In this document: positions 13,337 through 37,105 of the stretch, piece after piece
Numbering within the stretch: the stretch's first letter is position 1
Layout: each line of letters opens with the position of its first letter
Source of the DNA: Clostridia bacterium
GTDB taxonomy: Bacteria; Bacillota; Clostridia; TANB77; CAG-508
Reading direction: 5' to 3'
NCBI GenBank assembly: GCA_045643465.1
Contig: JAZUKV010000010.1
Location: 70,412-134,411 of the forward strand
DNA: 64,000 bases
The notes under the pieces: model-generated
What the model was told of the DNA's origin: nothing
The model's input: the letters and a program-made list of their open reading frames with translations, nothing else
The model's database searches: none
Translations under genes and position numbers: made by a program

Positions 13337-14335
13337 ATGAAATTAAAAGAAGAAAATAATAATAATGAAAAGAAATCAAAAAAAGGCGTATATAATTTTT
13401 TGAAAAAAAGTGCAATAATATTAACTATGGTAATAAGCATAATGGGATTTTTTACATTTGTTGATGAAAAGCCAACATGGGCAGATTCAGGACATAGTGT
13501 AAGTCATAGTAGTGGTGGTAGTCATAGCAGTAGTCATAGCAGTAGTCATAGTAGCAGCAGCTACAGCAGTAGTAGTAGCCACAGCAGTAGTAGTAGCCAC
13601 AGTAGTAATGGTTCAAGTAGTGGGCTTTTTAGCAGTAGTCATCCAATAAGAGATATTTTTGTTTCATTAATACTACTAGCAATAGTAGGATTTTACCCAG
13701 GGATGATAATATTTGCTATATCAAAAGCTAATAAGAAAAGAAGATATAGTTATGGAACCCCTACAATTAATGTTATAGATGAATCAAAACTTGAACAAGA
13801 AATTAAACAAATCATACCAAACTTTGATAGAGCAGCATTCTTAAATCAAGGATTTGAAAGTTATAAAGCAATACAAGACGCATGGATGAACTTTAAGTTA
13901 GAAGATGTAAGAGCTATTTTAACAGATGAATTATATAGCATGTATGATTCTCAATTAGCAATAATGGAAACAAAGCATGAACAAAACATCATGAAAGACA
14001 TAAAAATGCAAAGTAGCAAGTTAACTGGATATACTAACCAAAATGGAACAGTAACAATTACAACAGAATATTTCATAAATCTATATGATTATATAATCAA
14101 TACAGATACAAAGAAAGTAACAAGTGGAAATGCAAACACAAGATATACAGTTCGTTATCAAATGAAGTTCAGATTATCAACAGATGAAAATGATAAAGTT
14201 GAAAATTGTCCAAATTGTGGAGCAAAAGTAGATATAAATGCAGGTGGATATTGTGCATATTGCGGTTCAAAGATAGTAACAGAAAATACAAAATGGGTAT
14301 TAACAGAAAAAAATGTTTTACAACAATGGGATTAA
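13337..14335 (+). CDS. Tim44-like domain membrane protein with C-terminal zinc ribbon (paralog 2), with a Ser/His-rich ectodomain
   Basis: Same architecture as paralog 1: TWA/DSG, (SHSS)n low complexity, a TM helix, IPNFDRAAFLNQGFESYKAIQDAWMNFKLEDV..., CPNCG...CAYCGS. SD aggag. Confidence 0.75.
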   Translation: MKLKEENNNNEKKSKKGVYNFLKKSAIILTMVISIMGFFTFVDEKPTWADSGHSVSHSSGGSHSSSHSSSHSSSSYSSSSSHSSSSSHSSNGSSSGLFSSSHPIRDIFVSLILLAIVGFYPGMIIFAISKANKKRRYSYGTPTINVIDESKLEQEIKQIIPNFDRAAFLNQGFESYKAIQDAWMNFKLEDVRAILTDELYSMYDSQLAIMETKHEQNIMKDIKMQSSKLTGYTNQNGTVTITTEYFINLYDYIINTDTKKVTSGNANTRYTVRYQMKFRLSTDENDKVENCPNCGAKVDINAGGYCAYCGSKIVTENTKWVLTEKNVLQQWD

Positions 14336-14383
14336 TGTAAATGGGGACGGTTCTTATTTCCACTTTTTTCAAAAAAGGGACAG
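14336..14383 (+). repeat. REP-like element copy A (degenerate left arm, extended tail)
   Basis: GGGGACGGTTCTTATTTCCAC (14343-14363) matches 20 of 21 positions of the 29-nt unit seen at 36705. It is followed by TTTTTTCAAAAAAGGGACA, the same tail as copy B. Confidence 0.8.
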
Positions 14384-18990: not shown

Positions 18991-19050
18991 GGCGGAAAAC
19001 GGAACCGGAAAACGGGAAAACGGGAAAACGGGAAAACGGGAAAACGGGAC
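18991..19050 (+). repeat. G-rich 7-8 nt tandem repeat (GGAAAAC/GGGAAAAC)n
   Basis: ggcGGAAAAC GGAACC GGAAAAC, then four perfect GGGAAAAC units (19014-19045), running into the GGGAC of REP copy B. Confidence 0.95.
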
Positions 19051-19085
19051 GGTTCTAATTTCCACTTTTTTCAAAAAAGGGACAT
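19046..19085 (+). repeat. REP-like element copy B (left flank of the RAYT gene)
   Basis: GGGACGGTTCTAATTTCCAC is identical to positions 10-29 of the 29-nt unit. It is followed by TTTTTTCAAAAAAGGGACA, as in copy A. Confidence 0.85.
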
Positions 19086-19087
19086 AT

Positions 19088-19116
19088 TTGAAAAAAATAT
19101 AAAATTATAATATAAT
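19088..19116 (+). promoter_or_regulatory. candidate sigma-A promoter (TTGAAA-17-TATAAT) upstream of the RAYT gene
   Basis: ttgaaaaaaatataaaattataatataat. AT-rich context, so a chance match is possible. Confidence 0.4.
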
Positions 19117-19210: not shown

Positions 19211-19975
19211 ATGCCACGTGTTTCAAGGAGTAGTATAAACAGCAAATATATACATATTATAGTACAAGGGTTAAATAAAGAAAAAATCTTTGACAGTGAA
19301 GAAGGCACTGAAAAATATTTAAGAGAAATTAAAGATAAAAAAGACGAATTTCAAATAAAGATATTAGCATATTGTATAATGAATAATCATGCACATTTTT
19401 TGATATATACTGATAATATAGAAAATTTATCAAAGTATATGCAAAAGGTAAATATTGCATATTCGAAATATTATAATTTAATAAAAAATAGAGTGGGTTA
19501 TGTTTTTCGTGATAGATTTTATTCTCAAGAAATTTATAATGAAAAGCAATTATATCTATGCTTAAAATATATTCATAATAATCCGGTAAAAGCGTATATA
19601 GTAAATAGTATGGGAGAATATAAATATTCTAGTTATAATGAATTTTTGAATGAGTCGATAATAATAAATAAAGAATCTGGCCAATTAATTTTTCAATCAG
19701 AAAACTATAAAGAAGAGTTTTTAAAATTACATAATAGTATAAATGATAAAAATAGTGAATTCGTTTTAAAAGAGATTAAAGAAGAAAATTTTGAATCTTT
19801 TGTAGAAAATTTTTTAACGAAATATAACATTAACCAAAAAGACATCAAGAATAATAAAGAAATTCGAGAAATATTTATAAAATTAGCTAGATTTGAATCT
19901 AATGTAAAATTAGTTGATTTAGCAGAATATATAGGATTATCGAAAAGTACAATAGGAAAGATTTCAAAGAAATAA
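19211..19975 (+). CDS. HUH/Y1 tyrosine transposase of the RayT (REP-associated tyrosine transposase, COG1943 / IS200-like) type, with a C-terminal HTH-like extension
   Basis: SD aaaggagg. Motifs YIHIIVQG, HUH (NNHAHFLI), GYVFRDRFYSQ, the catalytic Tyr helix YIHNNPVKAYIV and YKYSSY are present. The C-terminus is LVDLAEYIGLSKSTIGKISKK. There is no tnpB partner. Confidence 0.85.
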   Translation: MPRVSRSSINSKYIHIIVQGLNKEKIFDSEEGTEKYLREIKDKKDEFQIKILAYCIMNNHAHFLIYTDNIENLSKYMQKVNIAYSKYYNLIKNRVGYVFRDRFYSQEIYNEKQLYLCLKYIHNNPVKAYIVNSMGEYKYSSYNEFLNESIIINKESGQLIFQSENYKEEFLKLHNSINDKNSEFVLKEIKEENFESFVENFLTKYNINQKDIKNNKEIREIFIKLARFESNVKLVDLAEYIGLSKSTIGKISKK

Positions 19976-19989
19976 CTATTAATAAAAGA

Positions 19990-20051
19990 GTGGAAAAAAG
20001 AACCGTCCCCAATTCCACAAAAGTGGAAAAAAGAACCGTCCCTAATTCCAT
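19990..20051 (-). repeat. REP-like element copies C and D (tandem, inverted relative to copy B)
   Basis: GTGGAAAAAAGAACCGTCCCCAATTCCAC, then aaaa, then GTGGAAAAAAGAACCGTCCCTAATTCCAT. These have 2 and 4 mismatches to the reverse complement of the 29-nt unit. Confidence 0.9.
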
Positions 20052-34221: not shown

Positions 34222-34875
34222 ATGGATAATGGAATTTTAAAATTTTTAGGAAGTGATAGTGGTTTTGGAGATTGTAATAATTCTGCGTATATAGAAGATA
34301 ATACAAAGTTTATATTGATAGATTGCGGATATACAGTATTTAATATTGTAAAAAGTAAGTTTGATTTAAAAAAATATGCAGAAATTGATGTAATAATAAC
34401 ACATCTACATAACGACCATGCAGGATCTTTAAGCCAATTTATAATGTATTTGTGGTTTGGATATGGTAAAAAAGTAAATGTATATAGCAAATGTTCTAGG
34501 ATTAAAGATTATTTAGAAATTACAGGAACTCCGGAAGAAGCGTATAATTTAACAAATGGAAATAATAATTTAAAATTTATTAAAACAAATCATGCAAAAG
34601 AGCTAGATGCGTATGGTTTTGAAATGAAATATAAAGATAAAAAATTTGTATACACAGGAGATACTTGTATATTAGAGCCATATTGTGAATATTTAGAAGA
34701 TGCTGATGAATTTTATGTAGATATTTCTGTTGGAAGTGATGTTCATTTAAAGATTAAGGATGTATTAGAAAAGCTTAAAGATATTAAGAATAATGGAACA
34801 GAAATATATATTATGCATACAGATGACAAAATGTACATAAAACAAATCATAGGAAACGAATTTATTATTGTTTAA
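34222..34875 (+). CDS. MBL-fold metallo-hydrolase
   Basis: HLHNDHAGS (HxHxDH) motif, with later TNHAKE and HTDD. Confidence 0.8.
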   Translation: MDNGILKFLGSDSGFGDCNNSAYIEDNTKFILIDCGYTVFNIVKSKFDLKKYAEIDVIITHLHNDHAGSLSQFIMYLWFGYGKKVNVYSKCSRIKDYLEITGTPEEAYNLTNGNNNLKFIKTNHAKELDAYGFEMKYKDKKFVYTGDTCILEPYCEYLEDADEFYVDISVGSDVHLKIKDVLEKLKDIKNNGTEIYIMHTDDKMYIKQIIGNEFIIV

Positions 34876-34942
34876 TAAACATATATGTGATATAATAAAA
34901 ACGATTTTTTATAAAATAGAAAATGGAGAGAGGATTGATAAA

Positions 34943-36703
34943 ATGAATAATACATATAGAACTCATACATGTGGAGAATTAAATATAAATAATATAAATC
35001 AAGAAGTAAGATTATCAGGATGGGTACAAAGAATTAGAAATTTAGGAGCAATGAAATTTATTGATTTAAGAGATCAATATGGAATTACTCAAATTGTTAT
35101 ATCAGATGAAGAAAAATTCAAATCAGAACTTGAACAAATAGTTACAGAATGTGTTATTCAAGTAAATGGTACAGTAGTTGAAAGGTCAAATAAAAATGAC
35201 AAAATTCCAACAGGTGAAATTGAAATTGATGCAAGCGAAATAAAAATATTAGGAAAATGTAAATCTACACTTCCTTTTGAGGTAAATTCAGAAAAAGCTG
35301 ATATAAATGCTGTTAGAGAAGATTTGAGATTAGAATATAGATTTTTAGATTTAAGAAATGAAAGAATACACAATATTTTATTACTTCGTTCACAAGTGAT
35401 GCAAACATTAAGAGCAAAATTATGTGAGCTAGGATTTTCTGAAATACAAACTCCTATTTTGGCAAACTCATCACCAGAAGGAGCTAGAGATTATTTAGTG
35501 CCAAGTAGATTGCACGAAGGAGAATTTTATGCTCTTCCACAAGCACCACAACAATTCAAACAATTATTAATGGTTTCAGGATTTGATAAATATTTCCAGA
35601 TAGCTCCATGTTTTAGAGATGAAGATCCTAGAGCAGATAGAGCACCTGGAGAATTTTATCAAGTAGATTTTGAAATGAGTTTTGCAGAGCAAGAAGATGT
35701 ATTTAACGTTCTTCATGAATTATTTATACCAACATTCAAAAAATTCACAACATGGAAGGTAGATGATGGTCCATTTATACAAATTCCATATAAAGAAGCT
35801 ATGGAAAAATACGGTATAGATAAACCAGATTTAAGAAATCCATTAATAATTCAAGATGCAACTAAATATTTTGAAGGAACAGAATTCAATGCTTTCAAAG
35901 ATAAAACAATAAAAGCAATAGTTGTACCAAATGGTGCAGAGCAAGGAAGAAAATTCTTTGATAATATGACAGAATTTGCTGTAGAAGAAGCAGGTGCTAA
36001 AGGATTAGCATGGGCAAAATTCGATAATGAATTAAATGCAACAGGTGGAATATCTAAGTTCATCACAGATGAAGTAAAAGCAGGATTAAAAGAAAATCTT
36101 GGAATAAAATCAAATGATGCAATATTCTTTATAGCAGATGAATTTAAAGTAGCTCAAAAAATAGCTGGTTTAGTAAGAATCGAGTTAGGAAAGAGATTAG
36201 ATTTATTAGAAAAGGATGTATACAAATTCTGTTTAATAACAGAATTCCCAATGTATGAATTATCAGAAGAAGGAACAATAGACTTCAATCATAATCCGTT
36301 TTCTATGCCAAAAGGTGGAATGGAAGCATTAATAAACCAAGATCCATTAGATATAGTAGCATATCAATTTGATGTTGTATGCAACGGATTTGAAATGGCA
36401 TCAGGTGCTGTAAGAAACCATAATCCAGAAATAATGGTCAAGGCTTTTGAAATAGCAGGATACAATGAAAAAGATGTAGAAACACGTTTTGGAGCATTAT
36501 ACAAAGCATTCCAATATGGAACACCACCACATGCAGGAGCAGCTCCAGGATTAGACAGAATGATAATGCTAATCGCAGATTCACAGAATATTAGAGAAGT
36601 AATAGCATTTCCAAAAAACAAAAAAGCAAGAGATGTATTAATGAATGCACCATCAAAAGTTACAGAAGAGCAATTAAACGATGTTCATATAAAATTAAAA
36701 TAG
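34943..36703 (+). CDS. aspS: aspartate--tRNA ligase
   Basis: SD ggagag lies before the ATG at 34943 (MNNTYRTHTCGEL). Motifs FRDEDPRADRAPGEFYQVDFEMSF, GGMEA..., and GTPPHAGAAPGLDRMIM are present. Confidence 0.95.
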   Translation: MNNTYRTHTCGELNINNINQEVRLSGWVQRIRNLGAMKFIDLRDQYGITQIVISDEEKFKSELEQIVTECVIQVNGTVVERSNKNDKIPTGEIEIDASEIKILGKCKSTLPFEVNSEKADINAVREDLRLEYRFLDLRNERIHNILLLRSQVMQTLRAKLCELGFSEIQTPILANSSPEGARDYLVPSRLHEGEFYALPQAPQQFKQLLMVSGFDKYFQIAPCFRDEDPRADRAPGEFYQVDFEMSFAEQEDVFNVLHELFIPTFKKFTTWKVDDGPFIQIPYKEAMEKYGIDKPDLRNPLIIQDATKYFEGTEFNAFKDKTIKAIVVPNGAEQGRKFFDNMTEFAVEEAGAKGLAWAKFDNELNATGGISKFITDEVKAGLKENLGIKSNDAIFFIADEFKVAQKIAGLVRIELGKRLDLLEKDVYKFCLITEFPMYELSEEGTIDFNHNPFSMPKGGMEALINQDPLDIVAYQFDVVCNGFEMASGAVRNHNPEIMVKAFEIAGYNEKDVETRFGALYKAFQYGTPPHAGAAPGLDRMIMLIADSQNIREVIAFPKNKKARDVLMNAPSKVTEEQLNDVHIKLK

Positions 36704-36704
36704 T

Positions 36705-36733
36705 GTGGAATTGGGGACGGTTCTAATTTCCAC
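36705..36733 (+). repeat. REP-like 29-nt unit, copy E (reference unit)
   Basis: GTGGAATTGGGGACGGTTCTAATTTCCAC. The terminal arms GTGGAA/TTCCAC are self-complementary. Confidence 0.9.
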
Positions 36734-36748
36734 AAAATAGGAAAAAAT

Positions 36749-36783
36749 GACAGATATGCGATGTGGCATATCTGTCTTTTTTT
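36749..36783 (+). terminator. aspS intrinsic terminator, nested between the two REP copies
   Basis: gacagatatgc/gcatatctgtc stem followed by T7. Confidence 0.85.
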
Positions 36784-36790
36784 ATAAAAA

Positions 36791-36819
36791 GTGGAAATTA
36801 GAACCGTCCCCAATTCCAC
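36791..36819 (-). repeat. REP-like 29-nt unit, copy F (exact reverse complement of copy E)
   Basis: GTGGAAATTAGAACCGTCCCCAATTCCAC equals the reverse complement of 36705-36733 at 29 of 29 positions. Confidence 0.95.
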
Positions 36820-36883
36820 TGTTGACCGCATATGAGTATTGTGGTAAAATATTCATATTGTAATTTGCAAAGGGGTGATCATT

Positions 36884-37105
36884 ATGTTTTATAAAAAAAT
36901 AATAATGGAAAAGGTTGAAAAAATATATCAAATATTAAATGAATTACAATGTAATGAAATTGAACTATTTTTAAGTATTCAAAGAAATCAAAATGTACTA
37001 ATAAAAAAAATAAATAAATTGGAAGAATATAATGAAATTGATGATATGTCAAAAGCACTAATGGATAAGAGATTATTGGAAATTAAACAAATGATAAAAA
37101 GTTAG
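36884..37105 (+). CDS. small hypothetical coiled-coil protein
   Basis: SD aaagggg lies before the ATG at 36884. A terminator follows at 37111-37139. Confidence 0.5.
   Translation: MFYKKIIMEKVEKIYQILNELQCNEIELFLSIQRNQNVLIKKINKLEEYNEIDDMSKALMDKRLLEIKQMIKS

Follow-up and report, generated by a model that had tools for sequence, protein, structure and literature searches.

A REP-family palindrome between aspS and orf76 in an uncultured clostridial genome and the probable origin of its terminator

The aspS-orf76 spacer and its palindrome

The window analyzed here is a stretch of 64,000 nt (positions 70,412 to 134,411 of contig JAZUKV010000010.1, assembly GCA_045643465.1) from a Clostridia bacterium, an uncultured organism whose draft genome (G000) comprises 1.507 Mb in 35 contigs and has a G+C content of 27%. 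The aspS gene, encoding aspartate-tRNA ligase, occupies positions 34868 to 36703 of the plus strand and ends with a TAG codon at 36701-36703. Downstream lie a conserved open reading frame of 73-76 aa (orf76) and then rlmN, which are preceded by a promoter-like sequence at 36822-36850 on the plus strand (TTGACC-17-TAAAAT with a TG-extended -10 element), and this promoter layout upstream of orf76 is conserved in relatives. A palindrome of 115 bp starts 1 nt after the aspS stop codon and ends 2 nt before the -35 element of the promoter. Its outer arms, at 36705-36733 (GTGGAATTGGGGACGGTTCTAATTTCCAC) and 36791-36819, had been described in the original prediction as exact reverse complements, and both a reading of the sequence and a pattern search with 0 mismatches bear this out at 29 of 29 positions; none of 100 shuffles of the window gave any match of this kind. 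The arms are 57 nt apart (36734-36790), and the interior reads AAAA-TAGGAAAAAATGACAGATATGC-GATGTG-GCATATCTGTCTTTTTTTAT-AAAAA. The hairpin and T-run that had been placed in this spacer are present as claimed, with an 11-bp stem (5 G-C pairs) and a 6-nt loop at 36749-36776 followed by T7 at 36777-36783.

The palindrome can be divided into outer and inner repeat modules. The left outer REP unit (GTGGAA-TT-GGGGACGGTTCT-AAT-TTCCAC; 36705-36733, plus strand) matches the family consensus exactly and is followed by an A4 spacer (36734-36737, plus strand), an unpaired internal loop in the same place as a non-complementary 4-nt spacer in the wide doublets of the sister species G010 described below. The left inner half-REP module, TAGGAAAAAATGACAGATATGC (36738-36759, plus strand), contributes an A-tract and the left terminator stem (36749-36759). 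It was recognized by GG at +7/+8 and GACA at +16 to +19 after TTCCAC, which are the offsets of the G010 modules ATGGAAAAAGGGACATAT. The apical loop GATGTG (36760-36765, plus strand) lies at the position that corresponds to that of the RAYT gene in the RAYT-flanking version of the layout. The right inner half-REP module (36766-36785, minus strand) reads ATAAAAAAAGACAGATATGC on its own strand, close to the tail TTTTTTCAAAAAAGGGACATAT at the left end of the RAYT locus, and read on the plus strand it gives the right stem (36766-36776) and the T7 run (36777-36783). An A5 spacer (36786-36790, plus strand; T5 in the orientation of the right unit) leads into the right outer REP unit (36791-36819, minus strand), which mirrors the left unit as its exact reverse complement. 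Neither arm departs from the REP family consensus at any of its 23 conserved positions. The 8 nt beside each outer arm (AAAATAGG versus TTTTTATA) are unpaired and the remaining 47 nt are perfect, with the palindrome extending 6 nt (ATATGC) past the recognizable end of the module around a short asymmetric centre.

RNA folding of 36695-36830, as had been proposed for this region, gave a two-tier structure in which an internal loop separates the 29-bp outer stem from the hairpin nested within it (-77.6 kcal/mol, z = -13.7), and the DNA fold of the palindrome is similarly marked (-49.1 kcal/mol, z = -15.4). As RNA, the left REP unit alone forms a hairpin of -8.9 kcal/mol, and the inner hairpin with its A/U extension (46 nt) one of -21.9 kcal/mol. 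The outer stem with a nested hairpin that had been put forward is therefore predicted for both nucleic acids, but in RNA it is available to a read-through transcript only, since the distal arm lies downstream of the U-tract. A stem-loop with G+C followed by a U-tract, 46 nt past the aspS stop codon, is what is expected of an intrinsic terminator, and a terminator scan scored the hairpin at 36749-36776 as terminator-like on both strands because an A-tract precedes it. A search of this genome with the inner 57 nt found no second copy, so the exact 115-bp unit is single-copy. An Rfam search of the palindrome returned no family at gathering score, the sub-threshold matches being to generic long hairpins (miRNA precursors) only.

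All relatives compared have an AspS C terminus (e.g., ...DVHISVLEEK*) that is longer by 3-6 residues than the one encoded here (...DVHIKLK*), and the last aspS codons may have been clipped when the palindrome arrived.

The REP family of this genome

The outer arms belong to a family of repeats with the 29-nt consensus GTGGAA-NNN-GGGACGGTTCT-NNN-TTCCAC. Counting matches with up to 1 mismatch to the core GGGACGGTTCT, a whole-genome search found 71 copies, distributed over 49 sites of which 47 are intergenic, and a reversed-pattern control in this genome gave 0 matches. At about half of the 49 sites, the repeat adjoins or overlaps the upstream gene's stop codon. Read in its own orientation, the REP has TTTT after it in 55 of 71 cases, and beyond the TTTT there is usually a second module starting (G)TGGAA.

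Several REP copies read TAG-TGGAA and so overlap stop codons. A conserved GTAG-like 5' tag was considered and rejected, as a position matrix had no conserved base beyond -9 and revealed no conserved 5' flank. REPs that overlap the upstream stop codon were seen at G000 C21:79299, C22:704, C34:62352, C23:33610, C33:108267 and C10:31916; in some of these the stop codon, TAG or TAA, leads into the REP at its first base, and one copy has TAG within the variable triplet, and therefore the repeat sometimes supplies or abuts the stop codon. Several REPs have their 5' arm replaced or lengthened by purine-rich tandem tracts, either (GGGAAAAC)n or (GGAAAAA)n (positions 18991-19050 of the window; G000 C24:3470-3525, C10:66000-66035, C2:24100-24128 and C33:38930-38960), as though slippage had reiterated the left arm of the REP.

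The palindrome is not the only doublet in the genome, a point on which its interpretation as a mobile unit had been made to depend, as the 71 copies include 15 inverted and 6 direct doublets, most of the inverted ones with a 4-nt A4/T4 spacer. Partner arms of the inverted doublets differ by a mean of 1.9 mismatches versus 5.5 between loci (permutation p < 1e-4), and the arms are identical in 5 of the 15 inverted doublets versus 0.7% of between-locus pairs. Identical arms are thus normal in the family and not special to the aspS palindrome; the identity itself, which had been taken as a sign of recent duplication or of selection for pairing, stands, but the special meaning given to it does not. 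REPs in inverted doublets and singlet REPs have 1.27 and 1.37 mismatches, respectively, at the conserved positions (Mann-Whitney p = 0.87), and with doublets no better conserved than singlets the classical argument for the doublet as the replicating unit fails here.

Inner tails like those of the palindrome recur beside other members of the family. The pattern A5-N0-3-GACA occurs within 30 nt 3' of a REP in 7 of the 71 copies, a count that includes both arms of the aspS palindrome, versus 0.09 expected (p about 1e-11). Singlet REPs with a matching inner tail are found at 5 sites besides the palindrome, and a copy with a REP, T6 and half-REP tail (AAAAAAGGGACAG) lies in the window at 14335-14383 on the plus strand. 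Among singlets and direct doublets between genes of the same direction, a hand tally of 25 has the T-run facing the upstream gene in about 18 and the other way in 7, which is weakly consistent with a terminator role for the REP family.

A RAYT-type gene flanked by the same repeats

A gene for a RAYT/TIRYT-type Y1 HUH transposase of 254 aa, the sole full-length copy in the genome, lies in the window at 19211-19975 on the plus strand, 17 kb upstream of the palindrome. Its product matches PF01797 (Y1_Tnp) with E = 1e-10 and 42.2 bits (cut-off 23), and its best NCBIfam match by far is REP_Tyr_transpos (NF047646), at 75.8 bits just under the cut-off of 80. The translation includes NHAHFLI and YIHNNP, which we take to be the HUH motif and the catalytic-tyrosine motif of RAYTs, respectively. 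A sequence search of the PDB gave no match at E <= 0.01, and a scan of contigs from other genomes found one distant MAG only, a sheep-rumen Clostridia bacterium with a product of 42% identity.

To the left of the gene, at 19037-19090 on the plus strand, are a REP (19037-19065), T6 and the inner half-REP AAAAAAGGGACATAT, so that the left end reads REP-T6-C-AAAAAAGGGACATAT. To its right, at 19990-20051 on the minus strand and hence inverted relative to the left end, is a direct REP doublet with a 4-nt TTTT spacer. The REPIN-like, REP/RAYT geometry that had been claimed for the palindrome is well founded in this respect, given that the only full-length RAYT-type gene is flanked by the repeat of the palindrome and that the palindrome has the long-hairpin form of inverted REPs. 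The gene lies between ileS and a deoD-like gene in both G000 and G010, and ileS is likewise its left-hand neighbour in the sister species G033 (GCA_017625035.1). Every RAYT homologue across the genus has inverted GGGGACG repeats on its two sides, and the tails of these repeats are lineage-specific.

A partial second RAYT-like frame with 51% identity to residues 87-145 (E = 4e-13) is found at a contig edge (G000 C22:3-179), 500 nt away from a REP, and RAYT may not be strictly single-copy in this genome.

The same layout in a sister species

G010 encodes the RAYT nearest to that of G000 (58% identity) and has 31 copies of the same REP. In each G010 copy examined, an inner half-REP, (G/A)TGGAAwwwGGGACAyAT, comes 4 nt after the REP. 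Most copies are arranged as wide inverted doublets, in which a REP, 4 nt and the inner module lead to a variable loop, and inner module', 4 nt and REP' come after it. Gene-less wide doublets of this REP-inner...inner'-REP' layout number at least ten. The RAYT gene of G010 lies inside such a unit, with a module pair at both ends; in G000, a pair of REP and inner module is found at the left end of the gene.

The palindrome downstream of aspS resembles these units closely. Core-to-core spacing is 96-100 nt at seven G010 loci and 76 nt at three, and in the palindrome it is 77 nt. The palindrome aligns collinearly with the 76-type units with a single gap, and both fold in two tiers. After TTCCAC, GG and GACA stand at the G010 offsets on the left and one base off on the right. 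The inner modules of the palindrome are degenerate (TGACAG and AGACAG versus GGGACA), and a hidden Markov model of the G010 inner modules (nhmmer, this genome) did not retrieve them at E < 10; the model was underpowered, with a best E-value of 0.036 in this genome and top matches that adjoin REPs. By a hand count, the T-run of the G010 inner hairpin agrees with gene orientation in about 6-7 cases, disagrees in 2 and is uninformative in 2, which is suggestive of agreement with the genes.

When folded as DNA, three G010 doublets of the 96 type (L083-L085) give a four-way junction with TTCCAC-loop-GTGGAA hairpins between the outer REP and the inner module. From these predicted folds, the inter-module hairpin may be the structure that the enzyme recognizes, rather than the 29-nt REP hairpin.

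It could be argued that the palindrome was born in place, a REP-plus-tail unit having been copied inverted by template switching or hairpin-primed repair, and that it was never mobilized as a unit. The 6 nt of pairing (ATATGC) beyond the module end around a short asymmetric centre would fit such an event, as would the single-copy status of the 115-bp unit, the same-tail singlets at 5 other sites and the equal conservation of singlets and doublets. Inverted copying should nevertheless have produced full pairing, yet the 8 nt beside each arm (AAAATAGG and TTTTTATA) do not pair. The outer-arm spacers are non-complementary in the G010 wide doublets as well, where this is a fixed feature, and this argues against a simple local inverted duplication. 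We consider an origin in place quite unlikely.

Presence and absence among relatives

Comparison of the aspS-rlmN spacer in related genomes, which had been suggested as a check on mobility, covered nine syntenic species of the genus with the order aspS-orf76(-rlmN). None has a palindrome-type repeat in the aspS-orf76 spacer, and the sequence is not common to relatives. No such repeat was found in this spacer in metagenome relatives either. Most of the nine species are without any terminator in the spacer, and in the nearest syntenic relatives a gap of only about 25-60 nt, devoid of a terminator, separates aspS from orf76-rlmN. The AspS of the window is a singleton among about 15 billion proteins, the nearest being 90% identical; orf76 matched nothing in a metagenome scan at more than 70% amino-acid identity, and exact-protein look-ups with orf76 and the PP2C gene gave no match.

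The same gene order bears on whether the palindrome could be a chimeric fold-back generated during metagenome assembly, as might be suspected of a draft genome in 35 contigs from an uncultured organism. The palindrome lies in the middle of a 154-kb contig, within an aspS-orf76-rlmN order that is conserved in nine species, and there are what the analysis counts as 15 other inverted doublets, as well as the same architecture in the independent genome G010. An assembly artefact is very improbable.

In G010, the aspS-orf76 spacer is empty and the REP family is present at other loci. At G010 C6 and C24 the reverse is seen, with doublets in G010 and REP-free counterpart spacers in G000, so that filled and empty pairs occur in both directions. 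One spacer among those compared is occupied in both genomes (G010 C58 and G000 C24), in different forms. The closest AspS (90%) is that of G033, whose aspS-orf76 spacer (loci L109/L110, 2990-3130) holds a direct doublet of a different family, GCACAT-N-GGGGACGT...ATGTGC, which has 42 copies in G033 and none in G000. A third stem type, GGACAAG-GGACGGTTCT-CTTGTCC followed by T7, lies directly 3' of aspS in a genome of another family. Across the order, the 11-mer REP core is patchily amplified: six genomes carry 168, 75, 59, 23, 18 and 18 copies, and most of the rest have 0-1. Together with the conserved place of the RAYT gene, this distribution shows repeats turning over around a vertically inherited RAYT enzyme, which is the pattern described for RAYTs (PMC5581495).

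The RAYT gene of G033 is flanked by yet another stem type, GGGAAAT-GGGGACGTTTTTC-TTTTCCC with the inner sequence GGGAAAAAGGGACAA, and several related REP families may coexist with one enzyme. In G081, a genome of the same family and another genus, the 168 core copies occur in arrays with a 21-nt period and patterns like + + - - (e.g., C4:68054-68106 and C1:18185-18329), much denser and differently organized than in G000.

A LexA-box-like motif (AACTTTTGTTCG, AAATATGTTCG or CGAATAAATGTTTG) lies just upstream of or inside the orf76 promoter in relatives, as seen when positions 36820-36884 of the window were compared with L003, L004, L005, L022, L023, L028 and L109. This genome has the repeat element at the corresponding position and no such motif. 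On the basis of this motif, orf76 may encode an SOS-controlled small protein whose control has been lost in this genome.

Origin of the terminator

The original prediction had the doublet enclosing the terminator of aspS. The hairpin and T7 do lie inside the doublet, but the hairpin looks like the inner modules of the REP family itself. Because the spacer shows the layout of that family, the stem and T-run are probably borne by the REP element and are probably not a separate aspS terminator.

Alternatively, a native aspS terminator could have been there first and could then have been flanked by two separate insertions of REP singlets, one per side, for instance if hairpins at gene ends are preferred by the enzyme or by selection; the likeness to half-REPs would then be due to chance. 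The inner 57 nt are unique in the genome, the HMM of the G010 inner modules misses them and the GGG of the module consensus is absent from them, all of which such an order of events would explain. REPs very often abut stop codons, which makes gene 3' ends preferred sites anyway, and three relatives (L024-L026) have their own unrelated terminator after aspS. Independent insertion accounts poorly for arms that are identical, as only 0.7% of between-locus pairs are, and for GG and GACA at exactly the family offsets on the left and one base off on the right. From the genome-wide rate, A5-N0-3-GACA is estimated to occur by chance beside a given REP about once per thousand, and the closest syntenic relatives are without any terminator between aspS and the orf76 promoter. 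A native terminator bracketed by REPs is unlikely, and an element-borne terminator is preferred below.

Relation to known REP/RAYT systems

Nearly all that has been established about REP/RAYT systems comes from Proteobacteria. For Firmicutes or Clostridia, literature searches turned up no specific account of REPINs or RAYTs apart from one line in a protein survey, which says of Group 1 RAYTs that they are "also found in the Clostridia" (PMC5581495). The REPINs of Pseudomonas fluorescens SBW25 (Bertels and Rainey 2011; PMC3337134) are like the elements described here in that inverted REPs form a long hairpin with a structured spacer that can itself form a hairpin, in being an extragenic family, and in the accompanying near single-copy gene for a tyrosine transposase, which is flanked by the repeats and keeps its position between species. 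A/T runs beside SBW25 doublets have been read, as here, as co-option for transcription attenuation (PMC3337134). Unlike those of SBW25, the doublets described here are no better conserved than singlets, most have a spacer of only 4 nt, the repeats carry no GTAG tag and the host is a low-GC Clostridia MAG rather than a proteobacterium. The RAYT gene also lies inside one doublet-like unit, whereas in SBW25 it is flanked by whole REPINs.

TIRtrons, or TIRYTs, are RAYT-like genes with inverted repeats that lack GTAG and share the motif GGGG(A/T)(C/G)A(C/G), as described in a survey by Di Nocera, De Gregorio and Rocco (2013; PMC3733652). According to that survey, the flanking repeats are members of moderately abundant families that occur as singlets, dimers and clusters (PMC3733652). 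The TIRtron motif GGGGWSAS, as given there, fits the inner modules of the present system (GGGACAG and GGGACAC) and nearly fits its core (GGGGACGG). A two-module end consisting of a REP and a half-REP, and a terminator made of inner modules, are features found here that are not among the TIRtron descriptions in the passages of the survey compared here; the survey makes no mention of Firmicutes or Clostridia (PMC3733652).

The background section of the survey also cites E. coli REP/BIME sequences as terminators or stabilizers of mRNA 3' ends (PMC3733652). As described there, these are, like the present repeats, extragenic palindromes located directly 3' of coding regions, which are transcribed and act on the 3' end of the mRNA. 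The aspS palindrome differs from classical REP/BIME sequences in its predicted canonical intrinsic terminator of a stem and U7. Classical REPs are mostly without a U-tract and serve as attenuators or as barriers to exonucleases. IS200/IS605 elements transpose by a Y1-catalyzed "peel and paste" mechanism, have subterminal hairpins at both ends and give rise to short gene-less MITE-like derivatives. The present system is like them in its Y1 HUH enzyme, the hairpins at both ends and a gene-less derivative of the two ends, but unlike in them the RAYT gene is single-copy and syntenic between species, which is the behaviour of a domesticated gene. No cleavage sites or target sequence could be defined around the REPs. 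The kind of element is therefore already known, being of the REP/RAYT or TIRtron-like type. What this member, from an uncultured Clostridia lineage, adds is a terminator that is probably element-borne.

A composite element with a built-in terminator

The 115-bp palindrome is best explained, with a probability that we put at about 0.6, as a single composite member of this genome's REP family which has the RAYT-type Y1 transposase as its partner and which carries its own terminator. Membership in the family, the architecture, the linkage to RAYT and the absence from sister species are directly supported by observation, and a REPIN-like reading of the palindrome is supported. The proposed composite would consist of an outer REP, 4-5 unpaired nt, an inner half-REP and a 6-nt centre, followed by the mirror image of these parts. 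Such a unit resembles a RAYT cassette reduced to its two joined ends, with no gene between them (MITE-like or REPIN-like), because the end modules of RAYT and the gene-less wide doublets of G010, at least ten in number, have its layout. It would be a non-autonomous substrate of RAYT, presumably acted on as single-stranded DNA, and it likely reached this lineage as one unit.

Pairing of the inner modules would form the 11-bp hairpin, and T7 would be the A-rich arm of the right module seen on the opposite strand. In this way the palindrome would bring to aspS a canonical two-way intrinsic terminator, inserted 1 nt past the stop codon and 2 nt before the -35 element of orf76-rlmN. The aspS transcript is predicted to fold first into the left REP hairpin and next into the inner hairpin, and to end in U7. 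The 29-bp stem formed in read-through RNA would be a likely substrate of RNase III. Either by termination or by means of the read-through stem, aspS would be insulated from orf76-rlmN.

A broader reading, which is tentative and rather doubtful, is that RAYT-linked repeats are portable, ready-made intrinsic terminators in these gut Clostridia and that the system is kept because it supplies and renews terminators or insulators in very compact genomes. Composite units would then be gene-less derivatives of the RAYT cassette whose inner modules evolve into a stem and U-tract, and different lineage-specific REP families would repeatedly colonize the same gene 3' ends. The idea of repeated colonization stems from the two REP families found in the aspS-orf76 spacer of two sister species and from the third type found in another bacterial family.

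The locus brings together the ends of a RAYT cassette, their gene-less derivative and a functional-looking predicted terminator built from that derivative, and among sister species the corresponding site is found both empty and occupied by another repeat family. At present, the outcome is a refined annotation of the aspS terminator as probably repeat-borne, and no new mechanism is revealed. If termination and cleavage by RAYT hold, this would be a compact system in which to ask whether such repeats persist as parasites or because they punctuate operons usefully.
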